From positions 2,604,001 to 2,668,000 of the forward strand of contig CAUYUJ010000001.1 of NCBI GenBank assembly GCA_963575745.1: a DNA stretch of 64,000 nt, given 5' to 3'. Shown here piece after piece: positions 12,565-45,952 of the stretch. A program made the position numbers and the translations under genes. The DNA comes from Prorocentrum cordatum (Eukaryota). The stretch's first letter is position 1. Every line of letters starts with the position of its first letter. Under the pieces are notes generated by a model. That model did no database searches. It saw only the letters and a list, made by a program, of their open reading frames with translations, and had not been told where the DNA came from.

Positions 12565-12569
12565 AGCAA

Positions 12570-12950
12570 TGGCCCGAAAGGCAGGAGCCACAATGGGCAC
12601 AAACGTGATACGGGGGGTCGTGTGAAGGATCTGGATGAAGGATCTGGATGTGCTGTTTCTTGAAACACAGAGCCGCGTCACCTTTCTCACTGTGAGGGCT
12701 GCAAATGTTCACCCAGAACTCCACCCCCAGATTATACTTTTCGTGGCCGGCCGAGAAAACCAGGTAATTGCCTTGGCGGCGGGCCCCCTGGGCGTTTCTC
12801 CCTTCCTGGGCCCCAGTAAAATGCACACCCGCCTTATACATCCGGTCCTGAAAGAGGAGCAAGCGGGCCTGTCTCTGCTTCCCCTTGGTGCCTCTTCTGC
12901 CGTCGGCTGTAAGACACTGGGCGTTGAAAGACGCCGCTCGCAATCGAATT
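12570..12950 (-). pseudogene. N-terminal part of APE-type (EEP) endonuclease
   Basis: IRLRAASFNAQCL (motif I), VHFTGAQEGR (QE motif), LGVEFWVN. Confidence 0.75.
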
Positions 12951-13207
12951 GTGGGGCCCCTGCCGCGCTTCCTTCCAGGGGCGTCTTGAGGGGTGGGAAC
13001 CACTTTGGAAGAAGGAAGGAGGCCTGAAAAGCTTCCTTGGCTGTCCAAGGTGACCTTAGGGTAAGCTCCTCCATCCTCCTTATCTCCTCGATGCAAAGCT
13101 TCAAGCCACTCCCACTCGCGACTGCATGTGTAAACTATCGCTTGCGCCCAGGAGAAGGGGAACGAAACCTCGTGGGGGGGGGGGAGCGCGCTGTCACAAG
13201 CAGTCGC

Positions 13208-13640
13208 TTACGCAAGATTGTCGGCAAGCATGTTCCAATGATGCCCAGTGCGGCTTTTCTCTTGCGAAATAATCACACGTTTCTGTAAGCACGCTATGGC
13301 CCAAATCTGCGCGAGAAGCCTCGCAAGATCTCTGTCAGATCGCGCGCAGCTCTGTCCAATGGCCGCACCTATCGCACTAAGAGAATCACTGACGACATGG
13401 AAGTCCACATCGAATGGGCACGTAATGGCCCACAACGCAGCCCAAACAAGTCGGAGGAGCTCCAAAGTCGTGCTATTCGAGTCCTCTATGTTAAGTCTCA
13501 TGGAGCTGGAATCCTCGAGTTTTCGCCTCCAACATCCCCACATAGAAACACCTCCATCACCTTCCGCTATGACCACGAAGGCCCATGCCGCGCGGGGCGT
13601 TCCATTGACGTAGTGGGAACCATCGGTGTAAATGTGGAAC
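13208..13640 (-). pseudogene. RNase H1-like domain
   Basis: IYTDGS...AAWAFVV...NSTTLEL...VVSDSLSAI...KSRTGHHWNMLADNLA, with D-E-D-D catalytic residues in order. Confidence 0.85.
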
Positions 13641-14544
13641 GTAGAAGGGGTGATGGGTCTGGGTGGGGCCATGTCAGTCGCGATCCTGGGGGCGTCCTCA
13701 ATCACTCCAGCTTGGGCCATATCCTGCAGGGGCACCAGTTCGAGGAGGGGGGCGGGAGAGGTCAACAGCACCTCCAGGGTAAGCTTGCAAGCTTCAAACG
13801 TGCACAAGTGACTTATCGTGCTAACTTGCTCGCATTCATGCTGCTCCAGCTGGCTCTGACCATTCATGCCGTTGCCCTCTTGGCGTCTGCGATGATGGGC
13901 ATCGCCTTTTCTCTCGAGCGGAAGCGGGGGGGGGGGGGGGGGCGAGACGGGGGGGGGGGGGGCAAGACGACGCGCGAACATCCATCATCCCAGGGGGTGA
14001 GCCTTCGCGTGAAAGGGGGGGGGCTCGAGGGGGGGGCAGGGCTCCAGCGGAGCCCTGGGGGGCCACCTCCGAGTTAGCCCCCCCCCCCCCCCCCCCCCGG
14101 AATTTTTAATTATCGCCCGTTGGTCGTCTTTGGACTCGAGTCTACCCTGCCCAATCTTTTGACCTGGCTTATAATACATAATGTGTGAAACTCCCCAGCA
14201 GACATTCTTCTTCCCCTTGGGCCTCTTTGGGGGAGGGGGGCCGTGTTCCCCTGGCCGAATGTCATGCTATATATTCGCAATGAAAAGCGCTGCCCGCAAG
14301 GCTGTTGCCTCGAGGGCCCTTAGAATCAGTGCGCTGGCGATCCATGCCAGCTGGCTGCTGGCGTTGACCTCGATCCCAAGATCATCTCCAACATAAAACG
14401 ACTGCAAAACTGACATGATAAAACAACTGGCGGGCTCATTCACTGCAGCTGCGGTGGGGGTTGACGACGCGGAAGGCGACGCCCCATGCATCGAGTCCTC
14501 CCTCATCATGTGCTCCTCCTTCAGCTGCGTGTTGGCCGAGTTGT

Positions 14545-15983
14545 TCAGATGTCGTCGGTGAGGCTCTCCTTCGGGCCCTGAATCAACTCCTGCTGCGATG
14601 CTGGCTGCGTTGGCGCCAGCTGCGCTGGATCTACGAAGGCCGCCGCCTCTGCCTGTGAGCACTGCGTGGACAACTGCTGCTGGCTGTTCGGGTTGCCCCA
14701 CATCTGCGTGGGTCCCCAGATGGCGCCGCGCTGGTAGAGGGCCTGCGACGGGTCCGATTGTGAGACCACGATCGGCTGCATGTTGTTCGTCTTCTGGAGT
14801 TCCGCAATCTGCTGCGCTCTCAGGGCCCCTCCGACTGAGGAAGATGCTGCTGATGCCGTGCCCGCTGCTGGCTGTGGGGTCGCGGTGCCCTAGCAGATCA
14901 GGCCGCTGAGCTCCGCGCCCACCATCTTGTCGTCCTCGCCCTCCTGCTGCTTGACCTGGTGCTTGAGGCTGGGCTGCTCGCTGGGTGGGCGTGTTGGCCC
15001 TTCTCTCTTCGCACCTGGGCTCGGCGAAGGGCGATGTGGCATCTGAGATGGCGGCGGCGGTCCTGAGGATAGCCACGGCATGAACGCCCCCCCTTTGCCC
15101 GTTCCTTTGGCCTGCTGCGCCGCCTGCTGCTGCATCCACATCTGCATGAGCTGCTGAATCTCGGCTGGGGGGTTCATCCCCTGCTGCTGAGGAATGAGCG
15201 GGCTCTGGACAGGGAGCTGCGGGATCGGCCACGCAGTAGTTGACGGTCCAGTCGCAATGCCGTGCGTTGCCATAAAAGGCGATGCCGCCGCTGGTTTCGC
15301 AGGGGGCGGGGCGACGTTGTGCGCCGCCGCCTCCTGCTGCTTCTTCGTCTTCTCTTCCTCCCCCATGGCCTCCAGGTCCTGCATGGTCTCCATGAGCCCT
15401 GAGACTTTCTGTGCCATCTCCTCTCGCTGAGTCTGGAGCTCCTCGATCCGGTGGTCTAGCTTCTCGATCTGCTCGGTGGTCATCGCGATCTCGTATTTTG
15501 TCTGCGCCATTTTGGTACTGATCGGATCCAATGCAGCAGTCGCAGACTTGAGGACCGCAGTGTGCTCTACGGAAGGTTGATCCTCTGCACCTGACCTCCG
15601 TGTAGCCACCTCCAGTGTCGCAAGAACCTCTATATGGTGGTTCACGTCGTTCTTGTACGCATCTCTTGTTGTGCTCTGCTGGGCGGTGGCTGCTGGTACT
15701 TGAGGTGCGCCTCCGCCACTTCCTTTGACGCCGTAGGCACCGAGTCCACCACCTGGCGAATCTCGTTTCGAGTGATCGGTCCAGTACGTCCTTTCATCGG
15801 TCGAGGGCGGTATGGCGGGGTCGGCTGGACTGTTGACTGCTGCTGCTCGCGTGTGCTGCGACTCGCCGACCTCGCCCTTTGACGACTGTGTGACCGCTGT
15901 CGCCACTTGTAACCACACAAACACTGCCAGTGCCTCATAGGCACTTCTCTGCTGCACTTCCCGCAACGCCATGTGGCAGGCAT
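14545..15983 (-). pseudogene. LINE-A ORF1 (zinc finger + coiled coil), disrupted
   Basis: MPATWRCGKC...WQCLCGYKW, frameshift ~15650, heptad-like IEKLDHRIEELQTQREEM, in-frame TAG at 14890; 3' end uncertain. Confidence 0.65.
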
Positions 15984-16132
15984 GAAAGGGCTCTTCTGGA
16001 GGTGTGTGAGCAAGCGTCCGCCTGCTTGGACCAGCTGGACTGAGGTGCGCGCAAGAAATCAAAACTACAGAAGGCCAGGGCGAGGCGTGAGCCTGCCTAC
16101 CCTGGTCAAATCTGGGTTCACTGTCGAACCAC

Positions 16133-16187
16133 CTTGACAATGGCCACGGACTTGAGCCAAAATGGCTTGAGCCAAAATGGCTACGGA
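16133..16187 (-). other. DinoSL stack: perfect 22-nt SL + perfect 15-nt relic + degenerate SL
   Basis: Minus strand TCCGTAGCCATTTTGGCTCAAG (16187-16166), CCATTTTGGCTCAAG (16165-16151), TCCGTGGCCATTGTCAAG (16150-16133). Confidence 0.95.
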
Positions 16188-16188
16188 T

Positions 16189-16307
16189 CTCCTCCTCGTT
16201 TTCCTCCTCCTCCTCCTCCTCCTCCTCCTCCTCCTCCTCCTCCTCCTCCTCCTCCTCCTCCTCCCCCGCCTCCTCCCCCTCCCCCTCCCCCTCCCCCTCC
16301 TCCTCTT
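16189..16307. repeat. (CCT)n microsatellite flanking LINE-A 5' end
   Basis: Direct reading. Confidence 0.95.
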
Positions 16308-16759
16308 CGGGCGCGCTGGGGATCCCATTGGGGCCCCTTTGGGCTCTCTTAGGGCCCTCGGGGCCTTCTTGGCCGTATTGGGGCAGTCTGGAGGCCATCT
16401 TGGGCCGTTTGGGGCCCCTTTGGGGCGCCTCTGGGGCCGTCTTGGGATGATCTCTGGGGCCTCTTAGGCCGTCTTGGGCCCGTCTGGGGGCCCTCTTGGA
16501 CCGCTATGGGCCCGTTTGGGGCGCCTCCGGGGCCGTCTTGGGACGATATTTGGGGCCTCTGGGCCGTCTTGGGCCCGTCTGGGGAAGAAACGGGCCATGG
16601 GGCCCGCCCGGGAGCCGCTTCACTCGAAACAATACGAGGGAAACGGGCTATTAGACTCTGACCATTCCGTTCGGGCCTCGCACCCCCCATGGACCCCCCC
16701 CCAAGAAGGGCTTCGCCCCCTACTCAACGTCACTCGCTCGTACCTCGCTCTTTCCGTCA

Positions 16760-18821
16760 CCTGCTTGGCACGGGGACGGAAAGCGCACTTACTTTCAGAG
16801 CGCACGAGATCGCTGGCTCGTCCGCTCTTACACCTCTTATTGACTCCCTTTCCCTCGCTCTTGTCCTATCTCAGCCTCGGAGAGTCCCGGAGTTTTCTTT
16901 GAGCGCGTTTCTTGTTTTGGAGGGGTCGGTCGGGTCGTGTTGCGTTTTCCGCGTTTGGGCTGCCAGCTTTCCAGAAACCCCGCGTTGTCCTTGCCGCTCG
17001 TTGTCCACGCGTTGCCGCCCGTCCCTGCCCTGGCGTCAAGAACTTATTACGCCGCAGCTCTCTGTTGGGAGCTTTGGTCTTATCAGCTCGATTACGTCAC
17101 CGCTCGCTCTTGGGAGCCGCGGTGCTAATAGCCTTTGGGAGTATTTTGGGCCTCTGGGGGGCCTTTGGTGGGCCTCTTGGGTGCCTCTTGGGGACCTTTT
17201 TGGGTTTTCCGGGGGCCTCTGGGGGCCTCCTGGGAGCTTCTGGGCTGCGGGGGTGAAGGGACTAGGCTGCCTTTGGCCGTCTTTGGGCTCTCTTGGGGGC
17301 CTCTTGGGGCCTTCTTGGGGCCGTCCTGGGGCCGTCTTGGGCCGTCTTGGCGCCTCTTGGGCCGTCTTGGCGCCCTCTTGGGCTGTTTTGGGGCCTTCTT
17401 GGGGGCCTCTTGGGCCTTCTTGGGGCGCTCTTGGGGGCCTCTTGGACAGTCTTGGACGCCTCTTGGCCCGTCTTGCCGCCCTCTTGGGCTATTTTAGGGG
17501 CCTCTTGGGAACATCTTCGGCCGTCTTGGGGCGGTCTTGGGGGCCTCTTGGGCCGTCTTCAACGCCATGAACAGCGAAAAGCCGTATATGCTAAAAATGC
17601 ACGTTTTCCTTAAGACAATCAATGATTTTGGCCTCTTGGGGCCCTCTTGGGACGCCTCGTGGGCGCCTCCTGGGGCGTCGTGGAGGCCTCTTGGGACGCC
17701 TTGGGGCCGCCTGGGGCGGTCTTGGGCTCTCTTGGAGCGCTTTTGGGCCAACTTGGGCGCTTCTTGGGCCGTCTTGGGCCGTCTTGGGCGCCGTCTTGGC
17801 CGCTTCTTGGGCTGTCTTAGGCGCCTGAGACGGCCAAAAAAGCGCCCAAGAAGCGTTCTCCGATGATGTCTCGAGCGAAACGCTGTTTTTAAGCCCCGGA
17901 GACCGTCCTACTCAATAAAAAAAAAAACGAGGCGCGGGTTCTTTCTGTGAGGGCGCGAGGTCGCTGGCCAGTGTCTTGGACCCCTGCTGGTGTGACGGCT
18001 TTGGTACGACATACTGAAATGTAGCAACGAGCCTCGCGAAAATCAGTGAATATTGTATTTCCGGGCCTTCCTGGGGGTCCTTTTGGGGCTCTTTTGGGCC
18101 GCCCCAAGACCCTCTTGAGCCGTCTTGGCGGGCTTGGGTCGTCTTGGGGCCCTCTCGGGGCCCTCTTGGGGACCTCATGTGGCCTCCTGTGGCCCCCTTG
18201 GGGCTCTCTTGGGAACCTTTCGGGGCCCTCTGGGACTCGTTTTGGGCCGTCTTGGGGCTCTCTTGGGCCGTCTTGGGGCCCTTTGGGGCCGTCTTGGGGC
18301 GCTCTTGGGGGCCTCTTAGGCAGTCCTGGGGCGGTCTTGGCCGCATCTTGGGCCGTCTTCGGCACTTGGAAAAATGTATGTTTTCCGGAGGGAATGAAAC
18401 GATTTTTGCCTCTTGGGGGTCCCCTTGGGGGCCTCTTCCGGCGTCTTGGGGGCCTCGTGGGCCGTCTTGAAGCCATATTGGGCCCTCTTTGAGCGCTCAT
18501 GGGCCGTCTTCGGGCCCTCTTGGACCTCTCCGACGCGTCTTGGAGGTATCTTGGGCGCTCTTGGGGCTGTCTTGGGCCGTCCTGAGGGCCTCTCAGGCGC
18601 TCTTGGGGCTGTCTTGGGCCGTCTTGGGCCGAAAATTGGGCTATTAGATCTGGGCCCGGTCCTGCCTAACCCCCCACCCCCCCTTGTTATTTCTCCCGAC
18701 TAACGGATCGCGACGCTACGCGCGCTTTCCGTCATCTGCCCCGCCCCCCTGCCTACCCCCCCCCCCCTGTTTTATTTCTCCCGACTAACGGATCGCGACG
18801 CTACGCGCGCTTTCCGTCATC
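16760..18821 (-). mobile_element. HINE-like family B copy (composite, duplicated terminus)
   Basis: GACGGAAAGCGC (16775-16786) inverted to GCGCTTTCCGTC (18722-18733 and 18807-18818); TCTTGG satellite interior. Confidence 0.65.
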
Positions 18822-22571: not shown

Positions 22572-23810
22572 CCTGCTTGGCATGGGGACGGAAAGCGCAC
22601 TTACTTTCAGAGCGCACAAGATCGCTGGCTCGTCCGCTCTTACACCTCTTATTGACTCCCTTCCCCTCGCTCTTGACCTATCTCAGCCTCGGAGAGTCGC
22701 GGAGCTTTCTTTGAGCGCGTTTCTTGTTTTGGAGGGGGCGGTCGGGTCGCGTTGCGTTTTCCGCGTTTGGGCTGCCAGCTTTCCAGAACCCCGCGTTGTC
22801 CTTGCGTGGACCGCTCGTTGTCCACGCGTTGCCGCCCGTCCCTGTGCCCTGGCTGCAAGAACGTATTACGCCGCAGCTCTCTGTAGGGAGCTTTGGTCTT
22901 ATCAGCTCGATTACGTCACCGCTCGCTCTTGTGAGCCGCGGTGCTAAGGGCCTTTGGGAGTATTATGGGCCTCTTGGGGGGCTCTTGGGGAGCCTCTTGG
23001 GTGCCTCTTGGGGACCTTTTGGAGCTTCTCGGGGGCCTCTGGGGGCCTCCTGGGAACTTTTGGGTGGCGGGGGTGAAGGGGCTAGGCTGCCTTTGGCCTT
23101 CTTTGGGCTCTCTTGGGGGCCTCTTGGGGCCTTCTTGGGGCCGTCCTGGGGCCGTCTTGGCGCCTCTTGGGCCGTCTTGGCGCCCTCTTGGGCCGTTTTG
23201 GGGCCCTCTTGGGGGCCTCTTGGGCCTTCTTGGGGCGCTCTTGGGGGCCTCTTGGACAGTCTTGGACGCCTCTTGGCCCGTCTTGCCGCCCTCTTGGGCT
23301 ATTTTAGGGGCCTCTTGGGAACATCTTCGGCCGTCTTGGGGCGGTCTTGGGGGCCTCTTGGGCCGTCTTCAACGCCATGAAAGGCGAAAAACCGTATATG
23401 CTAAAAATGCACGTTTTCCTTAAGACAATCAATGAGTTTGGCCTCTTGGGGCCCTCTTGGGACGCCTCGTGGGCGCCTCCTGGGGCGTCGTGGAGGCCTC
23501 TTGGGACGTCTTGGGGCCGCCCTGGGCGGTCTTGGGCTCTCTTGGAGAGCTCTTGGGCCGTCTTGGGCGCTTCTTGGGCCGTCTTGGGTCGTCTTGGGCG
23601 CCTACAGCGGCCCAAGAAGCGCCCAAGAAGCGTTCTCCGATGATGTCTCGAGCGAAACGCTGTTTTAAGCCCCGAAGGCCGCCCTACTCGATACAAAACG
23701 AGGCGCGAGGGCAATTAGATCCGGGTCCGCGGATGCCAACCCCTCGAACTCCGCCAGATCCAATTTCTTCCGACTAACGGACCGCACGCTAACGCGCGCT
23801 TTCCGTCATC
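22572..23810 (-). mobile_element. HINE-like family B, apparently complete copy
   Basis: GACGGAAAGCGC 22587-22598 / GCGCTTTCCGTC 23796-23807; short terminal hairpin TGC-TTG-GCA; ATC on both sides. Confidence 0.7.
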
Positions 23811-24345
23811 CGGGGCTCGCGATGCCACCCCCCTCGAACTCCCCCAAGTCCAATTTCTTCCGACTAACGGACCGCACGCTAACGCGCGCGGTGCGTCATC
23901 CCCATTCAGCAATCGGAGCCCAAATCGGAATCCGAAACCGAATCGAATCGGAATCGGGGGCGCTCGAAATCGCATCGAGCCGAGTCGGAGGAATCGTAAT
24001 GAGCCCTACTCTGCGCGTACTTATCTGGTCCCAAGGATTCTGGAGCAGCGCCTCTTCCCTGACGGGGGAAGGCCCCCCCCTTCGCCTGCACCCCCCTCCG
24101 CTGTGCGTGGGTGTGTGGGGGCCCCGGTGCCGCGAAGTATCCAGGACACTGGGGACTCCTCCTCCTCCTCCTCGTACTCCTCCTCCTCGTGCTCCTCCAT
24201 GCCGTGTCCTCCTCCTCCTCCTCCTCCTCCTCCTCCTCCTCCTCCTCCTCCTCCTCCTCCTCGTACTCTTCCTAGCCGTTTCGGGGCGAGGCAGGTGCCC
24301 GCTCTTGCGGGAGCAAGCTTCGGAGCGGCGTGCCCCCGCGGGCCG

Positions 24346-34600: not shown

Positions 34601-35843
34601 AGCTCCAACGACACCGCGTAATGGGGCGATGTGGTGCTGGCCTCGTTGCGATCAATCTTTCTCCACGCGATGTGGTGCTGGCGTGTGGCGGACTCGAGGC
34701 CCCGCGAGACAACAAAGAAATCGATGGTCCTCCACTGCTTGTCCGACTTGCCGCACGTGGGTCTGCTAGAATGCAAAGTTGTGCCGCCTTGTCAGCCCAC
34801 CCAGTGTTGAGCAGCTGTGATGGGTGAGTGTTCCAATCCCCTCCAATGATGAACGGAATCTGCAGCTGGTGGATCTCTTCGCCTATGCGATTCAAAGTCC
34901 TGATCGAGTCGAGGCCTAGCGGGCCGTTGCAATCTAAATAAAGCGAGAAGACCGCCAGGCCTCCAGGGGCGAACGTGTTGACCCACGCGGAGCATGCCCT
35001 CTCAGGCTGAGGAAGGGGGCGAGCGAGTGGCAAAGCTCCAATGGGGATGTGCGGACGAACCGCAATTCCTGTACCGCTGCTGAGTCCCCCTCCCAGGGTG
35101 GGGATACTGGGATTGACGATCGATTTCCACCCTATGCTCTTCAGCTGGTTGACCCCCTCGTACGGCGGCTCCCCGAAGCTGAAGTCCTGGAGGAAAACGA
35201 TGGTCCCCTGGGCCTCGTCCTGCAAATATGTTTTGAGAGATCCCCAGGACGTAGTATTGGCCGTGTCGAACACCACGCGCTTCAACTCTGACGAGGAAGG
35301 AAGAGTGGGTTTGGCGCGCGCGCCAGGCGTGCTGGCATCCTGCTCGCTCGCGCCTCCAGACTCACAGGAAGGTCGGGGGCATGTGCAAGCGGGAGTTCGC
35401 AGCGCCGAAGCTGAAACAGATCTCGTAGTAGATGATGGCTGCACCGCCCCTGCCGACGGCGACTGGACAGGACGACAGGGCAGCTGAGCAGGAAGGCGAA
35501 ACTGAAACCATGATGGTGCTGGTGTCATGCGTGCGCAGCTTGAGAATCTCGGGGCAATTTCGGGCTGCCCCCAACCCAGTGAGGTAGTGCCCGTGGAGGA
35601 GGTATCGCGAGGCAAGCCGTGCCGCGAACATGTGGCGCCCTCTGCCTGCCATGCTCGCGCCGATTCCCTGCCCCAGGGTCCCTCTAGGCGGTCCCAGCGC
35701 CTCGGGGGCGCTGGCCTACCGAGGGTTTCGTCTGGGGGGGGGGGGGGTCTCAGCGGTCTCATGGCAGGTGAGTGTGGCGACCATGTCGGAGACGTCGAAA
35801 TCGAAGTCCCGAGCGTAGTTGCCCACTGCCATGATAGGCTAAA
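30668..35843 (-). pseudogene. LINE-C ORF2 (APE-RT-ZnF-RNase H), several frameshifts
   Basis: DTANTTSW, IGGDWN, TIDFFV; RPIGVL, DMTKCY, QGVLAGCS, NVVDD; CLRCG..HRLYE; CIDGS..YSDY..KVKAH..LADMLA; WCSMC. Confidence 0.9.
31505..31705. repeat. (TG)n plus poly-G/poly-C tract inside the LINE-C RNase H domain
   Basis: Lies between the DGS and SD motif segments. Confidence 0.9.
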
Positions 35844-37248
35844 GTCCTGGCTGCGAATGACCTGGTTCGACTGAATTTCTTGAAAGTGCAAGGGCCATGT
35901 CGAGCCGCAACCTGTGCTCAGCAGAGTCCGACGCATCGACAGGGCGCTTCTCAGCGGTAGAACCCTGGTTGATGTCGCAGGCCTGGGCCACTGCGGCAGC
36001 CGATGGGGCCGAGGGGGCCCTCGGGCCTGGGGCAGTGGCAAGAGTGGCCGCGAGGGCCTCGGCTGCTGCGGGGGTAGCAGCCGCGGCCGAGCCAGGGGTG
36101 GCTGGCGCGCCACCTCTAGCAGCGTCGCAGTCGCCCTCGTCGTCGATGCCGAACTTGCGGCGCTTGAGCTGCATGCGGGCACGGAAGGCGCGCTGCTCGT
36201 CGACCAGCTCCTTGGCCCTCTGCTTGACCTGGCCAAAGGACTCCGCCACTGCCCTCTTGATGGTGTATTCGGCCTCCGCCTTGCGCCGAGCCACCTCTTC
36301 GCGCTCGTGTTCAGAGGGCTCGACGCCCTCGGCCTCCAAACCGAACAGGCCGTCGTCGGCGAAGATCTCAACAGAAGCGTGCTCGTCCAGCAGGCGTTCC
36401 AGGCTGAGGCCGCGGGTGCGGGGCGCGGCTGCGGGGGCCGCTGTCGCGCCCGCACCCTCGGGATGCACATGCTCGGCCAGGATGCGCACTGCCCTGTGGC
36501 AGTTAGCTTGGCACTCCTCGAAATCGGAGAGGGCGCTGATGGCGGCCTGCTCTGCGTCGTGGAGCTGTTGCTTGGGAGACCCAGCAGCGCGCACTTTTTT
36601 GTCCAGGAACGTATTCGCCTCACGCATGGCGTGCTGAGCAGCCCCCACCGTCTGGGGCTTGGGCACCGCGGCCATCTGCAGCTGGCTGGCACAACGGTTG
36701 TACAAGTCGGCACTGTGCGTGTCGCCAGTGCGCTGGAAATTCGCGGCCAAACTGAGCAGCACTGACACGTCCTCCTTGGAATAGCTGGTCCAAGAGTGAT
36801 GACCTGCCGAGCGTAGCCATCCAGATTCACCCAGCTGAAGTCCAGGCATTCTGGGCTCACTCGCTGGCTTGCCTGGGCCAGGTGGCTGCGGAGCTGAGGA
36901 CAGGGCATCGGTTTGACCCTTGCCTTTGCCCTTGTCGGAGTTGCCTCCCTTGCCGCCCTTGGTGAACTGGGATGCGCCTGTGCCCGCATCGCCCCCGTCG
37001 CACAGGGAGCGGTGGGAGCCCGCGGGGGGCCTGCTGGCCCAGGCGCCCGAGGCCTCGGGCGGAGCGGACGGGGCCACGAAGGACAATGGCTGCAGGCAGT
37101 GCTTGCAGAACCAGTAGTGTTTCTTGTTGTTCTTGCAACCGCAGTGGGGGCAGGGCGCTTTGCTGAGCGCTTCGCCGTCGCCGTACCATTGCTGAGGCTC
37201 ACCTGTTGGCTTGCGCACCCAAGGATCACGAAAGAACAGAGGAGCCAT
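35839..37248 (-). CDS. LINE-C ORF1 (C4 zinc finger, coiled coil)
   Basis: MAPLFF...CPHCGCKNNKKHYWFCKHC; open to TAG at 35839; start chosen as the ATG before the finger. Confidence 0.8.
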   Translation of the reverse strand: MAPLFFRDPWVRKPTGEPQQWYGDGEALSKAPCPHCGCKNNKKHYWFCKHCLQPLSFVAPSAPPEASGAWASRPPAGSHRSLCDGGDAGTGASQFTKGGKGGNSDKGKGKGQTDALSSAPQPPGPGKPASEPRMPGLQLGESGWLRSAGHHSWTSYSKEDVSVLLSLAANFQRTGDTHSADLYNRCASQLQMAAVPKPQTVGAAQHAMREANTFLDKKVRAAGSPKQQLHDAEQAAISALSDFEECQANCHRAVRILAEHVHPEGAGATAAPAAAPRTRGLSLERLLDEHASVEIFADDGLFGLEAEGVEPSEHEREEVARRKAEAEYTIKRAVAESFGQVKQRAKELVDEQRAFRARMQLKRRKFGIDDEGDCDAARGGAPATPGSAAAATPAAAEALAATLATAPGPRAPSAPSAAAVAQACDINQGSTAEKRPVDASDSAEHRLRLDMALALSRNSVEPGHSQPGL

Positions 37249-37395
37249 CGGCGAGCCGTAGCCAGGGGCTGACCTGACTGGGACGTCGTTGCTCCAGCAG
37301 GAGATCACAAAGAAAATGAAGGGAACCAACCTCGTCTGGCAGGCAACGAGGAGAAACTGTGGGGGCCGTCCTTCCCCCTTGCCAAACAGCCAGGT

Positions 37396-37438
37396 CCTGT
37401 GCCGAAACACTACGGACTTGAGCCTAAATGGCTACGGA
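37396..37438 (-). other. DinoSL (21/22) followed by an older degenerate SL
   Basis: TCCGTAGCCATTTAGGCTCAAG (37438-37417) + TCCGTAGTGTTTCGGCACAGG (37416-37396). Confidence 0.9.
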
Positions 37439-37440
37439 GG

Positions 37441-37472
37441 TCCTCCCTCTCCTCCTCCTCCTCCTCCTCCTC

Positions 37473-37508
<36 letters not shown>

Positions 37509-38033
37509 CCCTCCTTCTCCTCGTGCTCCTCCTCCTCCTCCTCGTCCTCCTCCTCCTCCTCCTCGTCCTCGGTTTCCTCCTCCTCCTTCTCCACCTCCTC
37601 GTCCTCGTCCTCGTCCTCCCCTCCTCGTCCTCCTCCTCCTCCTCCTCGTCCTCGTTCTCCTCCTCGTCCTCCTCCTCCTCGTTCTCTTTTTCCTCCTCCT
37701 CCTTGTCCTCGTTCTCCTCCTCTCCTCCTCCTCCTCCTCCTCCTCCTCCTCCTCCTCCCTCCTCCTCCTCTCCTCTCCTCCTCCTCCTCTCTCCTCCTCC
37801 TCTCCTCCTCCCTCCTCGTCCTCTCTCCTCCTCCCTCCTCCTCTCCTCCTCCTCCTCCTCTCCTCCTCCTCCTCCTCCTCCTCCTCGTCCTCCTCCCTCC
37901 TCCTCCTCCTCTCCTCCTTCCTCGTCCTCGTCCTCGTCGTCCTCGTCCTCCTCCTCCTTCTTCTTCTTCTCCTTCTTCTTCTTCTTCTTTTCCTCCTCCT
38001 CCTCCTCCTCCTCCTCCTCCTCCTCCTCCTCTC
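37441..38033. repeat. (CCT)n microsatellite
   Basis: Direct reading. Confidence 0.97.
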
Positions 38034-38198
38034 CCTGCGAGCGGAGCCTGGAGGCCCGCAAAGGGGGGGTCCCACAGCGGTGGGGCGACAGGCTGCGCCG
38101 TGGCCACGGGATCCCAAAGAGGACCTTGCCGCGCGGTCCGTCACCGCACCGCCGCGGGGCCCCGGATGCCCCAATCGCCCGAGACGTCCCTGGATAGA

Positions 38199-38338
38199 CG
38201 AGCGCGTTCCACTACTCGCAAAGTAGCTACTCGCAAATGAACTGGATCCCCCGCGAGGGATCTACGATCAATTACATCGAAGCAGACACGTGTGCGTTCG
38301 GTGCGAGTAGGCACTTTGCGAGTAGTGGAACGCGCTCG
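38199..38338. mobile_element. 140-bp MITE-like element with perfect 26-bp terminal inverted repeats
   Basis: CGAGCGCGTTCCACTACTCGCAAAGT (38199-38224) and its reverse complement (38313-38338); longer relative at ~58516-58832. Confidence 0.75.
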
Positions 38339-39519
38339 GTGACTGGAGGACGGCCCAAGTCTCAAAACAATGCGGTCACCCCGAATCCCCACTGACTCAC
38401 CGCACGGTGTGGTTGCCGCACCGTTTGGAGGCCCCCGAGAGAAGCTGCGAGTCCGGCCTCGGCGCCGCGGCCGAGTTCGACGAGCTCGCTGCCGGTGGGA
38501 GGTGTGGCCACCGATAGGCAGCCTGAAGGGCGACAACTCTGGTCCACCGTCCGAGACTGGCGGGGGCACCGACGTCTTTCTCTTGACGGCCTCCTTGACA
38601 TCGCGGTCGATGGCAGAGTCAAAGCCCGCACAGTCGACGGCTCCGACCTCGGCTCCGCGTCCGGCTTCGGCGGGAGCGCCAGTGCCGTACTGCTGCATAA
38701 CACGCCGTCGGGCCTTGACGACCTGGAGGCCCAGGCTGATAGCCTCGCCCACAGTCGCGCACGAGGCAGTCGCTGCTGCCATCCCGCGCATGGGCAAAAC
38801 GGGAGCGACGACGGCTGGCGATGAGGAGCACGGGTGCCAGAACGCACTTCGCCGTGAGGCACGGCTCCGATAAGGACGGCGACGAACCTATGCTTCATGA
38901 GCCCGCTGCCGCTGACGGAAGGGCGGCACTGGCGCCAGGGGCCTGGGAGCAGCGACAGCACAGGCCCGAACAACTCAGTGGGCTCGCAGACACCATCGGT
39001 GTCGCGTAAGAGGGCGCGCTCCCAACTCCGACGCCTTCGCCTAGCTCGAGTCCGACGCCGATGGCAGGGAGGTGCTGGCACACCAGGACGGGGAGCCGAT
39101 GAAACACCACGAGGATCTTCCACAAGACAAGGAGCAGGGGCTCAAATGGATGAGGATGAGGACCAGTTGGACGCTGCCGTGGCTCGAGTGCGATGTGTCA
39201 ACTCACGCGTCGATGAGAAGCTTGCCAATGGTGCCCCCATTCACTCGCTACTACTGTGCCGCGTTTCCAGCAGCACATCTCGCGAGGTACGGCCCCATGC
39301 CAGACCTGTCCGCATACCTTGTCGTGCGCTGCTGGCTTAGCTGGCACGCCGATGTTATGTTCACTCGACGTCCGTAAGGACACCTCGGCCCTAGTTTTGT
39401 TCAGTGTTCTTGTTTCTGTGAGCAGCTCCAACTTGTTCTTCGCGAGGTGCACTGGATTGCTTGGCTGACTGACAAACTGAATGACTGACTTACTTGTCGC
39501 ACCCGTCAGCCGGCCGATC

Positions 39520-39920
39520 TATATTCGGCCGCCGATTGCGCAACCGATGGTGCAACCAGTAAAAGGCTGATTCTTCTCGGCCGCCGAGTGCGCGCCGTGA
39601 GGAGCAACAGGTAACTAGCAGGCCGTTCGACTCTCGGCCGTCGAGTGCGGCACCCATGGCGCAACCAGAAGCGGGCCCCTTTATTGGCGGCCGCCGAGTG
39701 CGCAGCCTATGGCGAACCCGATCGCAGGTCGTTTTACTATCTGGCGCCGAGTGCGCAACCTATGGCGCAGCCGATCGCAGGCTGTGATATTCTCGGCTGC
39801 CGAGTGGACGACCTATGGCGCAACCAATGTCAAGCCGCTTTATCCTGGGCCACCGAGTGCGCAATAGCAGGCCCTTCGACTCCGGGCCGCCGAGTTAGCA
39901 ACGCATGGGGCAACCGATGG
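39520..39920. repeat. ~53-bp degenerate tandem repeat, about 8 units
   Basis: Core tctcggccgccgagtgcgcaacc(t/c)atggcgcaacc. Confidence 0.8.
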
Positions 39921-40391
39921 ATGGCGAAAGGGGGGGGAATAGCAAAGGGGGCGTTTGAGAATCAGCTCACGTAGTTGATTTTCCCGGCGCCTCCCGGCGC
40001 CGGAGGCGGCTATGTATCGAGGAATGGTCCCAGCGGCGGGGCCGAAACCAGCTGCATGCCGCAGATTTCGTACCCCCGCCTTTCCCAATACCACCCTTTC
40101 GTCTGCCCCGAAACCCATGGGCCGCGCAATCCATGGATGGAACGATGGAGCTTATCGCAATCCATGGACGGCACCGCAACCGATGGCGCAGCCCAGGGAC
40201 CGCGCAACCCATGGCGCGCAGCATGGGAGGCACCTTCTCGATCTTCCGCCGATGAGGAGGAGGTGGAGGAGGGGGAGGGGGAGGAGGAGGAGGAGGAGGA
40301 GGAGGAGGAGGAGGAGGAGGAGGAGCGAACGTAACCTTGAAGGAAGGTTCGTCCGCGCTTAGCCGAGCGCGCGGCGCGCCCGCGCCTCCAC

Positions 40392-43300
40392 TCAGGTCAG
40401 AGGAAGCTGGAGGGCGCGGCGGGCGGCGGCGAAGGCGGTGTACTGGTCGTGGTAGGAGATCGGGAGGGGGTGGTCCTTGGTGAGGTGGTATGCCCGCGTC
40501 GCGACGGCGAGGCGCGTGGCGGAGTTCGGGATGCCGTTCTCGCCGTCGAACGGGTGCGACAGCTCGGGGAGCGCCATGCGCGTGAGGAGGTCGGCGCTCA
40601 GCTGGCCGCGGGCAGGCTCAGCTGGTGCCACATGCGCTCGCACGTCATGTAGTGCTGAATGTTGTCCTTGGCGAGCGGGTGCGTGCACCCGAAGTGGCAA
40701 GGGCGCTTGTCCTGGATGACATGCATGCGGTAGCTGGTGGCCCATGCGCCCACGAGGGCCTTCACTGTGGCCCACATCCGTGCGGGCGGTTGCGTGGCCA
40801 GGTAGGTGCGCAGGCGTTTCCATCGAGCTGGAAGATCGGCAGGAACCCGTTGGAGACGTAGAAGATCAGGCGGCTCGTCTTCATCATCGGGAGGGTCTTC
40901 GTCGCCGTCGGGGAAGTCGGCGTCACTGATGTCGGTGTCGGGCAGCTGGTACGGGGGAAAGTTGGTGACCCAGCGGCGGCGAGCACGATGTTGGGCAGCC
41001 TCATGTTGAAGTAGCGAAATCTGGCTGCTCGGTTCATCTGAGCGGGTCCGAGCTCTTGAGAGGCGATGTTCGAGGAGGATTCTGCCAGTACCGCTGTTGT
41101 CCCATGCCTGCTGACACATATCGGCGGCGATCTGTCGACGGCGAGTGGAGGTGGCATAAAGCGGGCGAGAGGTCTCGGATCCGAGAAGCTCGCACAGGTA
41201 CTCTGTGCACCACTGCATCCAGTCTGAGCGGTTGTCGATCGTGTTGTCGTTGAGCAGGATGTCGGGGATCCAGTGGGCGGCCCACGCACGAGCTCGGTCA
41301 GCCAGGCGTTCTTGCACGATTTCGGCTTTTCGGCGAGGCCCGCTGATCGGTTCCCTGGTTAGCGACTTCGCAGGGTCAAGAGACGGGAACCAGGACATGA
41401 GCCGCCGCTTGATGGTGTCTGCCATCGTGTCGGTGTAGAGCTGCTCGTTGAGGGACATCATGTAGGCCTTCTGCGGCGTGATCTGTGCGGCTCGGCGGCG
41501 GTGCGATTCTTGTTGCTGCTGTAGGAGGGCCTGCATTCCAGCACGGGCGGCTCGCTTGTGGATGCCAATCATAGCGGCTCGGGCGCGGGGAAGGGGGCCC
41601 GCTGTGCGGGTCAACCTCTTTAAGTGGGAACCCTTGCCGTCGGGGAAGAAAGTAGAGTTGGTGATGTGCTCGAAACGTTGGACAATGGAAGTCTTGATGG
41701 ACCAGCACTCGCTGCACCAGCGGCCGCGCTGCACTGTGACAATGGGGAGCTGCTCGTACGCGGTGTCGCAGAGCGCGTTGAATGCATCGCGCCACTCTGC
41801 CACCGCGTTGGTGGCTGTGCGCCACATAGTGGCTGCCAGGTAGTTCTCGATGCCAGTGGGAACCTCAGCCTTGGTCCAGAGGGACATCGCGAGGATGTCG
41901 GACTTCGCGAAGCTGGACGGGGCGACGCGCAGCAACTTGTGGATGGCCTTCAGCTCCTTCTGGAGGATGCCCTCCGAGGGTTCGAATAGCTGGCCAACGT
42001 AACCGAGGACCGTGACGGCAGCGACGTTGCACAGTTTGATGCTTTGCTGGATAGGGGCGTGGGACGCAGCAAGCTTCTCGATGCGGTCCCACCACTTGAC
42101 CGCGGGGCCGCGCCATTGGTCGTCAAGTGTGGCGCCAGGGCCGATGATGAAGCCGAGGTATCTGGCGCTGGACTCAACTTTGAAGGCGGCCCGGGGAGCG
42201 TGGGCGGTCGCAAGTACTTGACGTATCTCTGCAATGATGTCCTGAGTGGGCAACGTCCAGGTCGGGACCACGATGCATTCCTTGGCCTGGAGGCACAGCC
42301 CCGCGAGAGTCTCCACCGCGATGATGTGCGGCGCGAGCTTGCTGATGTCCGCGAGCCTCGCGAGGATAATGCCGAGGTCGTCAGCACATGCGCTAACCAG
42401 ACCGCGCTCGATGGCTGAGAGCTCTCTGGTGAGGGCTCTGATGACGGGGTCGAAGACGAGGGCCCATATCGTTCCGCTTAACGGGCAACCCTGGGCGACT
42501 CCTGGGGCTGCGATCAGGAGGGGGTGGCGTGCACCTGCCAGGTCCAGGTAGGAGACAGGCCAATGGTAGCAGGCTTGAAGCAGGTGAAGCATGTGTCCGT
42601 GGATGCCCCACCGCTGGAGAACGCTCCACATCCAGCGGTGGCCGAGGCTGGGGAAAGCGGCCGCGATGTCCATGCTGACAAAGACGGGCTTGTCAGTAGC
42701 TGCATTAGGTGAAAGACTGTGACGTCGAGCGGCGGCGTCCACCACGACGACGTTGCGCAAAAACTGGCGGCCATTGACGAATCCCTGCTGCTCGGGGGAC
42801 GTCTCGGCTGCGAGGGCGTGAAGCTGCTTCACGTCCGAGTTCTCCATTGAGAGCGGACGTAGGCACTCCGCAGGGCTCGTCGCCCTTCGGTAGCGTGGCC
42901 ATGAGGGAGTAGTTGAGGTCGTGAGGCGGTGCGCGTCGGGTAGCGATGCCCCTGCAGAAGTCGGCGAGGATGTCGAAGCTGTCGGGAGTACGCAGCCATG
43001 CTTTGTAAGGAAGTGTGTCAGGACCTGGTGCTGAATCGCCAGCCAGGCGAGCGGCCTTCTCGAGAGCTTGGGCGTCAGGAAGGTCGAGGTGAGTGAGTGC
43101 GCGTCTGGGAAAGATCGAGTCGAGGTAGTTGGAGAGGGCGTCGTCGGGAACATGATTTGCGGAGAAGACAGGGGCCCAGTGGCGCATGATGGCCTGATGC
43201 ATCGTCGCGGGGTCGGTGACGATGTTGGTGACGCCGCCCGCGATGATCTTGAGGCCCGTCAAGACGAGCCGCTTGGAGAAGGGCTTCCAGAGCTCGCCGT

Positions 43301-44694
43301 GGAGGCCTTCACGTTTGGCGCGCTGGCGCCACTTCTGACCGAGCTGGACATTGTTGGCGGCGAAAGCGGCTCGCGAGCGTGCCGCAGAGAGGGCCTTGCG
43401 CTCATCACTAAGGCTCGCGTGCGTGGCGTCGGTGGTCGAGGTGAAGTCATGCATGTCGTTGATGCTGACGGTGCGACCGTCAATCTTCAGGTGCAGTTTG
43501 CCGATGTCAGTGTTGTCGATCAGCGTCTGGGCAAGGGGGATGTTCTGGTACCATGCGGCCCTGGCGATGCTGCGTAGTGTCGTGGCCCTGGTCTCCTTTC
43601 TGACAGTACCACTTTGTGATGATAGTTCGGCGGCTGGGATCTTGAGAAGCGTGTCGCGGGCTCTGGCAGCAGCAACTCTCATGGCTGCCTTCAAGGCCCT
43701 CCAGCGCGCCGTGGGAGTGAGGGAAGACATGTCGACCGCGGCGAGCACTCTTGTGATGTGGTGCTTGTAGTGGTCGGTGTCGAAGATGTACGCGGGGATG
43801 CCGCGCTCGGTGACCTTCTTGGGCTTGCGAAGACGGATGCGCAGGTGCATGATCTTGTGGTCGCTGACGGGGCCCTTGGGGTTCTCGAGGGGAGCGTCGT
43901 CGGCGATGTAGACAGTTTCCATGAAGGGCATGAGGTGGCTGGGTAGGTTGATGAAGCAGCGGTCAATCGTCGATTCATTCTTGTTAGCCTCCGACCTGTG
44001 TGTCGTCGAGGGAGTCACTATCTCGATGACGTCGCGGAACAGGTTGCGCCAGAAGACAGGTTGGTACTGGTACCGCTGTGAAGCTGTGGTGTCTGAGTCG
44101 ACAGGCGTGTTGATCGAGCGTGGTGGGAACTCGGAGACGTTGAAGTCGCCGACGATGACTAGAAGCCGATGCTGAGGGGCTTCGTCAGCATGATGGCGGA
44201 GAGCGTGCCATTGGTCACGAAGGAGAAACCGATCTGCTGGAGTCAAGCCGAAGTTGTGAATGTTGAGGACGGTGACTTCGTGCTGGAGGTTGGCATCCGT
44301 GGTCCGGAGCCGCGCGGCTCGGCCAGGGATGACGACCTCGAACCTGAGTTGAGGCCGTTCGTCAGGGGGAAGTTGAAGCTCTGCTTTGTCGTAAGGGGAC
44401 GAGGAAGCCGATGCCACCAGCGTTCGTTACGGGCACGCCGTTGACCTTCACAGGCGAGTGGAAAGCTTTGTACCGATGTTGAGTAGAGTTCGCCAGCAGC
44501 TTGAGGTCGTCCAGTGTCCCATGAGTCTCTTGAACTGCAATGAGAGCTCGTTGGCGAAAATATGGTAGGAGTTGCTGGCGTTTGTCCGCGCGACGTAGTG
44601 CGGACTGTCCGAGAAGCGCTTGCGAGTTCCAGAATGCGATGTCCAGGCCCTCCTGCGAGGGCTTCAGGAGCCAGGGGCTCCAGCGAAGGCTAAA
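40392..44694 (-). pseudogene. LINE-D ORF2 (APE-RT-CCHC), several frameshifts
   Basis: AFWNSQAL, AVQETH, VGDFN, TIDRCF, SDH; SAPGPD, RPLSM, QQGF, DIAAAF, GVAQGCPLS, ACADD; CHFGC..HYMTC. Confidence 0.9.
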
Positions 44695-45700
44695 GCCACT
44701 GTGCGGCGGCGAGGGGGTCTGCGAAGTTGCTGATGAACTCGGCTGCAATCTGCTTCTGGTCATCTTCAGAGATTCCGAGTCTGATGGCGGCTTGTGACCA
44801 CTGGAGCTTAGTAGGAGCATCAGCATTGCTGCCAACAATAAGCCGAACCAAGGCTTCGCCACGGCACGAAATGTATCCCAGGGTTCTGTGTGAGCGAGCG
44901 TCGAGGTCGGGCTTGAAGTTCTGCATGATCTTGGCGAGGCGCTTGATCTGGACCTCCGTGCGGACGGCCTTCGGGCTTTTGTCGGCAGATACGTATAAAG
45001 GAACGAGTTTGTCATTACCACAATCGAGAGTAAATGTGCGCCAATCCTTTCCATTGCGCAAAGTATTATGAAGCCGTTGCGCCCGAGGTTCCGCAACCAC
45101 TGTGCCTCCACTGACTTGAAACGAATGGCGCTTGGAGGGGCCAACTGTGTTGAAGATGACCATATCCTTCTTGATGTTGGCGGCCTGGAACCATGGGATA
45201 AGCGCTTTTTCCAGGTGCTGCTGACTGAACTCCTGCGGGCTGCTGCACCAGAAGGTCGTGATGTCGGGGTCGCGGTCCCAGCTGCCCAGGCCGTCCAGGT
45301 TGAGGGCGGGAGCGCGTGCTTCAGCTGCTGTGACAATGGACTCGAGCTTGGCGACGGCGGCTTTGAGTTCGGAGTTCTGTTTTTCCAGGGCATTGGTGCG
45401 GAGCTTGACTGCGGTGATGTCTCGTTCTGTGGCTTCGTGCCGTCTGCTGAGGTCGGACGTGATCTGCGTGAGGGAGGCGAGAAACTCTGAGCTGGCCTTT
45501 GCTGTGACTGCCTTGGCTGTGGCTTCGAACTTTTCGGTGGCGTCTTTGATCTGGGCAGCCATGGTCTCCTCGAGTTGCTTACGAACATGTGCTGGGAGGT
45601 CGTGGACTGCGAGTTTGGAAGCACTGTCATGCCATGGATCTTGTTGTCGCTTGACAGGGTCGGTGGCTCCGTCTCGAGGGGTTGATGCAGCGCTGGCCAT
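44690..45700 (-). CDS. LINE-D ORF1 (coiled coil followed by an alpha/beta region)
   Basis: Open frame MASAAS...QWL*; heptads ITAVKLRTNALEKQNSELKAAVAKLE; position between SL and APE. Confidence 0.8.
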   Translation of the reverse strand: MASAASTPRDGATDPVKRQQDPWHDSASKLAVHDLPAHVRKQLEETMAAQIKDATEKFEATAKAVTAKASSEFLASLTQITSDLSRRHEATERDITAVKLRTNALEKQNSELKAAVAKLESIVTAAEARAPALNLDGLGSWDRDPDITTFWCSSPQEFSQQHLEKALIPWFQAANIKKDMVIFNTVGPSKRHSFQVSGGTVVAEPRAQRLHNTLRNGKDWRTFTLDCGNDKLVPLYVSADKSPKAVRTEVQIKRLAKIMQNFKPDLDARSHRTLGYISCRGEALVRLIVGSNADAPTKLQWSQAAIRLGISEDDQKQIAAEFISNFADPLAAAQWL

Positions 45701-45930
45701 GCAGTCGACGGGAGGACCCAGGTTGGCGACGACAGCGAACTGAGCGAACTGAGGCCCGCGCCAGCCTCTGGTGGCAATCCGCCGAAGTGCGCGTGGAGGA
45801 GACTGCAGGCGAATGCAGCTCCAGATATGAAGCTCAACCCGCTGGGCAGCAGGAAGGCGAGGATATGAAAACGTGTCCTTAGCTGTCCCTGGACCAAGGG
45901 TCTCCGTGCTCTGCCACGGGGCTGAATCAT

Positions 45931-45952
45931 CTTGAGCCAAAATGGCTACGGA
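45931..45952 (-). other. Perfect 22-nt DinoSL at LINE-D 5' end
   Basis: TCCGTAGCCATTTTGGCTCAAG. Confidence 0.97.

Follow-up and report, generated by a model that had tools for sequence, protein, structure and literature searches.

LINE retrotransposons of Prorocentrum cordatum that begin with the host spliced leader

A stretch of 64,000 nucleotides from the dinoflagellate Prorocentrum cordatum (GenBank assembly GCA_963575745.1, contig CAUYUJ010000001.1, positions 2,604,001 to 2,668,000; hereafter the window, numbered from its first base) holds four long interspersed nuclear elements, LINE-A to LINE-D, whose 5' ends carry an exact or degenerate copy of the spliced leader that dinoflagellates use (DinoSL), the sequence that host mRNAs receive by trans-splicing. 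How does the leader come to stand at the first base of a mobile element, and what does it say about the way in which the element is transcribed? The answer that we consider likely is that LINE RNAs undergo trans-splicing in the same way as host mRNAs, and that the leader travels to new sites in full-length cDNA.

The whole window was searched with the 21-nt DinoSL core, allowing up to three mismatches, with 100 shuffles as the null. Four matches were found against 0.01 expected by shuffling, all of them on the minus strand: two without mismatch (16166-16186 and 45931-45951), one with a single mismatch (37417-37437) and one in an overlapping register over a relic (16151-16171). Beyond these, the 64 kb contained no DinoSL core match at this threshold. 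A T precedes the core in LINE-A, LINE-C and LINE-D, giving 22-nt leaders at 16187-16166, 37438-37417 and 45952-45931. The initial annotation had described perfect leaders opening LINE-A and LINE-D, a 21/22 match in LINE-C and a degenerate 13/18 match in LINE-B; all four were confirmed, the first three at exactly the positions given and the last at 24273-24290 on the plus strand, directly after a 13-bp target-site duplication. Each leader site is the 5' end of a retrotransposon, the leader being the first base of the element, and lies about 150-230 nt before the ATG of open reading frame 1 (ORF1). As first described, the leader is in sense orientation in every element and abuts a microsatellite; the repeat is (GAG)n in LINE-A and LINE-C and (CCT)n in LINE-B and LINE-D as read in element orientation. 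The presence of leaders at LINE 5' ends is real. The elements, their leaders and their flanks are as follows.

12565-16187, minus strand: LINE-A, a leader-tagged copy broken by frameshifts and stops, its 3' side cut inside the endonuclease
16166-16187, minus strand: newest DinoSL of LINE-A, 22/22, TCCGTAGCCATTTTGGCTCAAG (core search and reading)
16151-16165, minus strand: 15-nt relic leader of LINE-A, CCATTTTGGCTCAAG, an earlier leader shortened at its internal AG (reading)
16133-16150, minus strand: oldest leader of LINE-A, degenerate, TCCGTGGCCATTGTCAAG (anchored alignment)
16188-16292, no strand assigned: (GAG)n microsatellite, in element orientation, adjoining the LINE-A 5' end (reading)
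24160-24272, no strand assigned: LINE-flanking microsatellite (reading)
24260-24272, plus strand: 5' copy of the LINE-B target-site duplication, CTCGTACTCTTCC (reading)
24273-30433, plus strand: LINE-B, with ORF1 and an open 1606-aa ORF2 frame (25546-30366) holding APE endonuclease and reverse transcriptase (RT); ends read
24273-24290, plus strand: degenerate leader of LINE-B, TAGCCGTTTCGGGGCGAG, 13/18 ungapped, or 16/22 counting the TCC of the duplication
30434-30446, plus strand: 3' copy of the LINE-B target-site duplication, 13/13 identical (reading)
about 30610-37438, minus strand: LINE-C, with leader, zinc-finger ORF1 (ATG at 37248), APE, RT, a (C)n(CA)n tract and an RNaseH-like stretch
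37417-37438, minus strand: DinoSL of LINE-C, 21/22, T to A at leader position 15 (core search and reading)
37397-37416, minus strand: older, degenerate full-length leader of LINE-C, TCCGTAGTGTTTCGGCACAG (anchored alignment score 9, null fraction 8.5e-4)
37439-38040, no strand assigned: LINE-flanking microsatellite (reading)
40246-40325, no strand assigned: (CTC)n microsatellite after the LINE-D 3' end, the same repeat as on the 5' side (reading)
about 40326-45952, minus strand: LINE-D, with leader, 230-nt 5' untranslated region (UTR), ORF1 and an APE-RT ORF2 spread over three reading frames (reading and frames)
45931-45952, minus strand: DinoSL of LINE-D, 22/22 (core search and reading)
45953-46070, no strand assigned: (CCT)n microsatellite, in element orientation, adjoining the LINE-D 5' end (reading)

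The degenerate leaders were compared with random sequence from the window. The likeness of the LINE-B leader (at least 13/18) was reached by 13 of 127,730 window 18-mers; with the junction as anchor of the alignment and the duplication's TCC included, the fraction of random window 28-mers reaching it was 8.5e-4. For the oldest leader of LINE-A, the anchored alignment score of 10 was reached by 6.8e-4 of such 28-mers.

The boundaries of the insertions show on which side the leader belongs. LINE-B is bracketed by its 13/13 duplication, and the same microsatellite stands on both sides of LINE-C, whose flanks are GAG-rich, of LINE-D and of L258, an intact leader-tagged element on another contig (described below). 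Because the leader lies inside the duplication of LINE-B and inside a continuous microsatellite in the other three, it is part of the inserted unit. Purine/pyrimidine microsatellites host all four window LINEs as well as L258. No direct repeats were found bracketing any window element in a self-BLAST of the window, and none of the four has a long poly(A) tract at its 3' end, which fits elements with their own recognised 3' ends rather than poly(A)-primed pseudogenes. Nor is any of the window leader sites a spliced-leader (SL) RNA gene: none of the leaders is followed by SL intron-type sequence (GT[AT]..). In environmental SL-RNA genes the leader is followed by an intron such as GTACAAGTTGGGCTG...GCAGGCCTTTTT, and a GT[AT].. 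start was present in 27 of 101 distinct environmental contexts among the matches listed. Rfam gave no match at gathering thresholds in the whole window, neither an SL RNA nor a hepatitis delta virus (HDV)-like ribozyme, although a divergent ribozyme is still possible.

As to class, a non-long-terminal-repeat RT was found in LINE-D (52 bits) and L258 (43.3 bits); the RT matches of LINE-B and LINE-C are below the cut-off and match each other. The RT is absent from the LINE-A copy and present in relatives of LINE-A. An APE endonuclease N-terminal to the RT was found in L258 (36.6 bits), in the partial element L261 (32.9 bits) and, by homology, in LINE-D and LINE-A, while LINE-B and LINE-C gave weak Pfam matches only; Pfam reported no restriction-like endonuclease, APE domains being found instead. 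Nucleotide similarity among the four window elements did not extend beyond the leader and microsatellite in self-BLAST, and protein similarity was limited to the RT of LINE-B and LINE-C; tblastx among the four was swamped by compositional matches and was not used. The four are unrelated families with different ORF2 layouts. At least three ORF2 architectures had been claimed, and the claim held: RNaseH-APE-(RT) in LINE-A, APE-RT with an RNaseH-like stretch in LINE-C, and APE-RT in LINE-B and LINE-D.

Other leader-tagged elements were sought by scanning a set of genome contigs for the exact leader, which gave 20 rows. What follows the leader identified seven sites, on four contigs, as SL genes and 14 loci as something else. 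L258 (G001:C12) lies on a 9096-nt contig of 70% G+C that is filed under a bacterial metagenome-assembled genome (MAG). It begins with (GA)n, followed by the leader at 117-137, a 95-nt UTR, an ORF1 in which a RanBP2 zinc finger scores 30.9 bits, and an ORF2 of 2536 aa without a stop, which holds the APE and RT domains scored above; its 3' end, ...GGGTAAAAAA, is followed by (GA)n again. Leader-tagged copies are not only wreckage, because L258 is intact. In L261, the leader is followed by a 98-nt UTR, ORF1 and an ORF2 that starts with the APE domain, after which the contig ends. A third locus, L253, is a tentative case only, with a weak RT match (25.7 bits, cut-off 29.6) 4 kb downstream of the leader. 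At 7983-8059 on its minus strand, L253 has an exact leader with the same 19 nt, TTTTGCTTGCAGGCGTGAG, on both sides, and four long ORFs lie downstream; it may have arisen when a cDNA recombined with the 5' region of its own parent. PDB searches with L258 and L253 gave no match.

Two of the window elements have stacked leaders. In LINE-A the full leader is followed by CCATTTTGGCTCAAG and then by TCCGTGGCCATTGTCAAG, making three leaders in succession, and LINE-C has two, the 21/22 leader followed by TCCGTAGTGTTTCGGCACAG. In both elements the newest leader is perfect or near-perfect while the older relics have decayed. The relics are of two forms: LINE-A has a 15-nt relic joined at the leader AG, a known form in which the leader is truncated at its internal AG upon new splicing (PMC7245778, PMC12014239), and both LINE-A and LINE-C have full-length degenerate relics. 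Stacked relics were not seen in LINE-B, LINE-D, L258, L261 or L253; the anchored score behind the LINE-D leader was -4 (null fraction 0.71), and the anchored test found no significant relic behind the leaders of L258, L261 and L253. The three stacked leaders in LINE-A and two in LINE-C show that their lineages passed through at least three and at least two rounds, respectively, of trans-splicing and reinsertion.

An acceptor inside or just before an old leader needs RNA upstream of it, an outron, and the parent copies were thus probably transcribed from flanking DNA, either by read-through or from a neighbouring promoter. The initial annotation had proposed that these LINEs are excised by trans-splicing from read-through transcripts. 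Of this, a pre-mRNA start upstream of the element is implied by the stacks of LINE-A and LINE-C, and read-through as its source shares the field with a neighbouring promoter. Upstream transcription would be the strongest sequence-level argument against dependence on an internal start site in these lineages. That the leader derives from a trans-spliced RNA template we hold with high confidence, and the tagged copies were probably recycled from transcripts initiated in the flank. It is conceivable, if somewhat doubtful, that these families need no promoter of their own.

In the proposed cycle, target-primed reverse transcription would reach the first base of the RNA, so that the new copy begins with DinoSL. 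A copy landing in a transcribed region would be excised, with an AG in its own leader or in the flank as acceptor, and a new leader would cap the excised RNA, which would be translated and then reinserted at an APE-nicked microsatellite. The genomic leader would bring acceptors of its own, one AG at bases 6-7 and another at 21-22. If splicing chose the terminal one, the new leader would take the exact place of the old and only one would stand there, the state of LINE-D and L258; the full-length relics would arise from an acceptor AG at the very end of the flank, of which (GAG)n and (GA)n offer many. The microsatellite targets may themselves help: (CCT)n forms a polypyrimidine tract, while (GAG)n and (GA)n are AG arrays. 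More tentative still is the broadest form of the model, a LINE class without an internal promoter that uses host trans-splicing as its 5'-end machinery, takes its acceptor context from its microsatellite targets and makes the thousands of leader-tagged retrogenes of dinoflagellates.

Several other histories could place a leader at the end of a LINE. Trans-splicing of most dinoflagellate mRNAs is established (PMC7245778, PMC12014239), and elements with their own promoter and an acceptor in the 5' UTR would also shed tagged copies, so that the single leaders of LINE-D, L258 and L261 are uninformative on promoters. The tagged copies might then be dead-end by-products, promoterless pseudocopies that do not propagate, shed by masters with an internal promoter and a 5' UTR acceptor. 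The broken state of LINE-A, LINE-C and LINE-D would suit such an origin, as would LINE-B, which is young and intact and has no fresh leader. We nevertheless regard it as unlikely: the stacks of LINE-A and LINE-C mean that copies already tagged went through expression, renewed splicing and reinsertion, and L258 is tagged yet fully open over ORF1 and ORF2, so that not all tagged copies are dead. The leader might instead have been captured once and inherited as a built-in 5' UTR or promoter, transcription starting at or near its first base through a TTTT motif or from an internal promoter downstream, with no new trans-splicing and an RNA that only imitates a spliced mRNA. The TTT(T/G) motif of relic leaders has been proposed as a promoter element (Song et al. 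2017, PMC5585692), the exact 5' end of LINE-B is a degenerate leader, and giant-virus contigs seem to encode leaders directly before genes. However, stacks of two to three leaders with an AG-truncated relic require renewed splicing, and perfect leaders in LINE-A, LINE-D and L258 against decayed older relics fit renewal and not inheritance, which leaves a single capture improbable.

Template switching, in which the RT jumped at the cDNA end onto SL RNA or another capped mRNA, has known counterparts in the U6-L1 chimeras. By their sequence the single-leader copies (LINE-D, L258 and L261) are compatible with it, but a jump onto SL RNA would have copied the intron, and none is present; in seven independent elements the leader sequence consists of the 22-nt exon alone, placed at the very start, and the 15-nt relic of LINE-A ends at the known internal AG acceptor. 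Such jumps are a very improbable source of these leaders. Hardly any weight falls on site-specific targeting of SL-RNA genes, or of leader copies in the genome, in the manner of NeSL, CRE, SLACS and CZAR. LINE clades that target spliced-leader exons do exist (PMC4640811), but the window elements lack an SL intron or SL-gene flank, the DNA upstream of them is microsatellite, and their leaders lie inside the LINE-B duplication and inside the microsatellites of LINE-C, LINE-D and L258. Their endonuclease is of the APE and not the restriction-like type, and the initial annotation was right to find this mode of insertion a poor fit.

Recycling through trans-splicing has to be set against a number of observations that weigh on the other side. 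Besides the generality of trans-splicing, which would give tagged copies of promoter-bearing elements as well, the APE and RT Pfam matches of LINE-B and LINE-C are under the curated cut-offs, and the window copies of LINE-A, LINE-C and LINE-D are broken (LINE-A is without RT; the other two are frameshifted). The boundary at the leader was read from one copy per family. LINEs are a minority of leader-tagged loci, with two firm cases and one tentative among the 14 non-SL-gene loci of the genome contigs, and RT was found in 0 of 99 ORF entries downstream of metagenome leaders (among the matches listed, with some ORFs scanned twice and most contigs shorter than 3 kb). LINE-B, finally, looks young and intact, with a perfect duplication and an open ORF2, and its leader has decayed. 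Either its RNA lacked a fresh 5' leader when it was copied, or the copy was 5'-truncated; such truncation may be the cause, or else transcription may have begun close to the relic or at it, along the lines of the promoter idea of Song et al. (PMC5585692). With LINE-B looking young yet having a decayed leader only, leader renewal is not universal across families, which speaks against the suggestion that trans-splicing regenerates the 5' end in every cycle.

Recycling of trans-spliced RNA has precedents among host genes. Slamovits and Keeling, in 2008, are said to have described a 'recycling of processed cDNAs' in retrogenes with DinoSL relics. Leader relics before retroposed host genes are by now well known (Song et al. 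2017, PMC5585692; Stephens et al. 2020, PMC7245778). Those retrogenes resemble the LINEs in having a genomic leader at the 5' end of the retrocopy, relics truncated at an AG by renewed trans-splicing, and expression without a promoter of their own. They differ in that the RNA recycled here is that of an autonomous element (ORF1 plus APE-RT) and not a host mRNA, and in that the LINE copies lack a poly(A) tail and show target duplications or microsatellites as targets. On retroelements, Song et al. (PMC5585692) noted only an enrichment of the gene ontology class 'RNA-dependent DNA replication' among leader-tagged genes, and in the openly available literature that was searched LINEs with a spliced leader as their first bases were nowhere explicitly described.

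Among LINEs, CRE, SLACS, CZAR and NeSL also stand beside spliced-leader sequence in trans-splicing organisms; their endonuclease is restriction-like and their insertion site is the SL exon of SL-RNA genes, which makes their leader target DNA (PMC4640811). Here the leader arrives complete as part of the inserted cDNA, and the elements encode an APE endonuclease and target microsatellites. The trypanosomatid elements L1Tc and ingi likewise inhabit a genome that is transcribed polycistronically and in which SL trans-splicing is universal, but they carry Pr77, an internal promoter for RNA polymerase II, and their transcripts are unspliced (PMC1874656, PMC8190864), the opposite of the solution suggested here. 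Non-LTR elements that target microsatellites are known, such as the (TG)n-specific Togen and the HERO families (PMC4640811); these too insert into simple repeats and have the repeat on both sides, but the families named belong to clades with restriction-like endonucleases, while the present elements are of APE type and their repeat may also serve as splice-acceptor context. A likeness in the model only is to the R2-type LINEs, in that the element would have no promoter of its own, would be transcribed with a host unit and would have its 5' end set by RNA processing. R2-type LINEs are co-transcribed with the host gene and released by a self-cleaving, HDV-like ribozyme at their 5' end; here, processing would fall to host trans-splicing, which also supplies the cap, the window has no Rfam ribozyme, and the target is not rDNA.

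The LINEs described here extend known dinoflagellate mRNA recycling to autonomous elements. To a specialist the basic fact would be plausible rather than shocking, because nearly all dinoflagellate mRNAs are trans-spliced. Its value lies in the evidence for recycling of autonomous elements, in an intact example, in a microsatellite targeting that leader-tagged retrocopies share and in a promoter-free model that can be tested; DinoSL-primed long-read cDNA libraries exist for Symbiodinium species (PMC8045281). What makes the leader-tagged retrogenes of dinoflagellates, and how promoter-less copies survive, has so far been conjectural. The present elements supply candidate families, APE-type and microsatellite-targeting, one of which is intact, and suggest a simple route by which a LINE could persist without carrying a promoter. 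If the model is true, these elements would be the long-sought machinery behind the leader-tagged retrogenes, which are likewise enriched beside microsatellites.

The coding regions of LINE-A and LINE-D were as follows.

15642-15983, minus strand: LINE-A ORF1 start (ATG at 15983), frame broken after 114 aa
13211-13639, minus strand: LINE-A RNase H, at the N-terminal end of ORF2 (Pfam RNase_H, E 0.002, under the curated cut-off)
12650-12990, minus strand: LINE-A APE endonuclease, N-terminal part, at the end of the element (BLASTP to protein P0059, residues 320-433, E 8e-5)
44690-45700, minus strand: LINE-D ORF1, 336 aa, coiled-coil-like (translation)
42708-44670, minus strand: LINE-D APE endonuclease and linker, in two frames (motifs by eye; BLASTP)
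40598-43258, minus strand: LINE-D RT frame, 886 aa (Pfam RVT_1, E 8.6e-14, 52 bits)

One correction concerns LINE-A: the copy ends inside the endonuclease at 12565, with no RT left. The breakpoint was fixed by alignment with two paralogous copies of a 1-kb repeat, and the truncation means that no target-site duplication is readable on this side. ORF1 has a zinc-finger-like motif, C-x2-C...W-x-C-x-C, as judged by eye. The RNase H and the partial APE lie in one frame. The last 120 residues align with the start of the APE of P0059, in which Pfam places Exo_endo_phos at 343-567; the APE piece itself had no direct Pfam match, and LINE-A had no PDB match with phmmer and none in a word-index search among longer proteins. 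An exhaustive HMMER search with the RNase H piece gave 88 relatives, and the long ones (1276-1555 aa), from Prorocentrum and Polarella, have the order RNaseH-APE-RT. By these alignments LINE-A belongs to a family whose ORF2 layout is unusual, and this copy of it was cut within the endonuclease. The RNase H of LINEs is usually placed after the RT; it is N-terminal of APE and RT in the ORF2 of LINE-A (12650-13639, minus strand) and in the proteins P0026, P0058, P0059 and P0065.

Just before the RNase H in LINE-A ORF2, the stretch at 13652-13867 (minus strand) is 79% identical to a 72-aa transcriptome-derived peptide, P0016, labelled Pyramimonas sp. CCMP1952; a close relative of LINE-A seems to be transcribed in that culture. 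The 1-kb repeat has three copies, at 10958-12564, 16759-17834 and 22572-23602, which are 93-97% identical and spaced by about 5.8 kb. At the end of every copy stands a minisatellite of the GGCCCAAGA type (about 12 nt), and the first copy abuts the truncated end of LINE-A.

LINE-B gave Pfam matches to Exo_endo_phos (E 8.9e-4) and RVT_1 (E 0.007), and a PDB search with its ORF2 was without match. LINE-C, with matches to RVT_1 (E 4.9e-5) and Exo_endo_phos (E 0.007), has several frameshifts; an RNaseH-like stretch was recognised at about 31360-31500, by eye only. The element had been thought to end near 31800 but continues to about 30610, an end that is approximate only.

For LINE-D, the RT matches the structures of R2 and LINE-1 ORF2 (E 3e-10 to 2e-8). 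The nearest RT proteins are from Prorocentrum cordatum (33% identity), other relatives carry APE plus RT, and no relatives were found in viral contigs. The APE and linker region matches residues 208-650 of P0008, an APE plus RT protein (BLASTP E 5e-15). No direct Pfam match was obtained for the APE region and no Pfam family for ORF1, and a PDB search with the middle ORF was without match. About 800 nt upstream of LINE-D there is a 797-aa Ala/Pro/Ser-rich frame (46766-49159, minus strand), and a 650-aa frame with DUF6492 lies at 60416-62368, also on the minus strand, which is that of LINE-A, LINE-C and LINE-D. These long frames would fit a minus-strand gene array.

Contigs from four DNA runs were compared with 30600-46300 at 85% likeness; the microsatellites at 37439-38040 and 40242-40332 and one more place were skipped and the contigs cut there. 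Run X1 gave 2193 short pieces on this interval, of which 224 were alike at 99% or more, 525 at 95-99%, 902 at 90-95% and 542 below 90%. Contig pieces listed for all four runs span LINE-C and LINE-D, the leader/flank junctions being outside the coverage; among the pieces listed, none had a loose end at a leader. Pieces from all four runs pile up at 37936-38459 and 39508-40555, where the summed X1 contig depth is 1197-4315, versus 8-130 over the LINEs, and many loose contig ends fall at 38302 and 38339-38343. Short repeats of very high abundance probably make up the two intervals, between LINE-C and LINE-D.

Metagenome contigs contained the exact leader at no fewer than 141 sites in at least 126 loci. 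Among the loci listed, tblastn found no match to the window LINE proteins, nor to 12 added dinoflagellate LINE proteins. Sixty-eight ORFs of at least 180 aa among the matches listed included none with RT at a Pfam E of 1e-4 or less; one, on an AT-rich giant-virus-like contig, had an APE domain, and another (L056) had zf-CCHC. Neither RT nor APE was present in 31 metagenome ORFs among the matches listed at a Pfam E of 0.05 or less. Full-length-type relics were found in 0 of 101 metagenome contexts listed, at up to seven mismatches, so that the full-length stacks of LINE-A and LINE-C are without an environmental counterpart there. A simple repeat stood directly before leader-tagged metagenome retrocopies in 5 of the 76 contexts listed, versus 137 of 20,000 random positions and 0 of 25 SL genes, which suggests that the same microsatellite-nicking machinery makes LINE copies and leader-tagged retrocopies. 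Loci linked to microsatellite flanks were L019, L054, L059, L096, L116, L246, L249, L258 and L260.

The leader scan of viral contigs yielded giant-virus contigs and no LINE. Contigs of giant-virus MAGs have many exact DinoSL copies before genes, both in the viral set (L127-L245) and in the metagenome set (L002/L003, L017, L018, L043, L047 and L061-L063), where their G+C content is 17-29%. The viral set has 136 distinct leader contexts, 129 of them preceded by A, and many leaders follow an AT-rich motif such as TTTATTTTTTATTTTTAAATATAAATTTTA. Genes behind these leaders include RecQ helicase, PolX, FtsJ methyltransferase and DUF4116 proteins. It looks as if dinoflagellate viruses encode the host leader directly at transcript starts, of which there was no obvious report in the literature searched. 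Dinoflagellate leaders, SL-RNA genes and eukaryotic LINEs also occur on contigs filed under bacterial MAGs (L246, L255 and L260, from one MAG, together with L258, L261 and others), and such contigs are probably mis-binned eukaryotic DNA.

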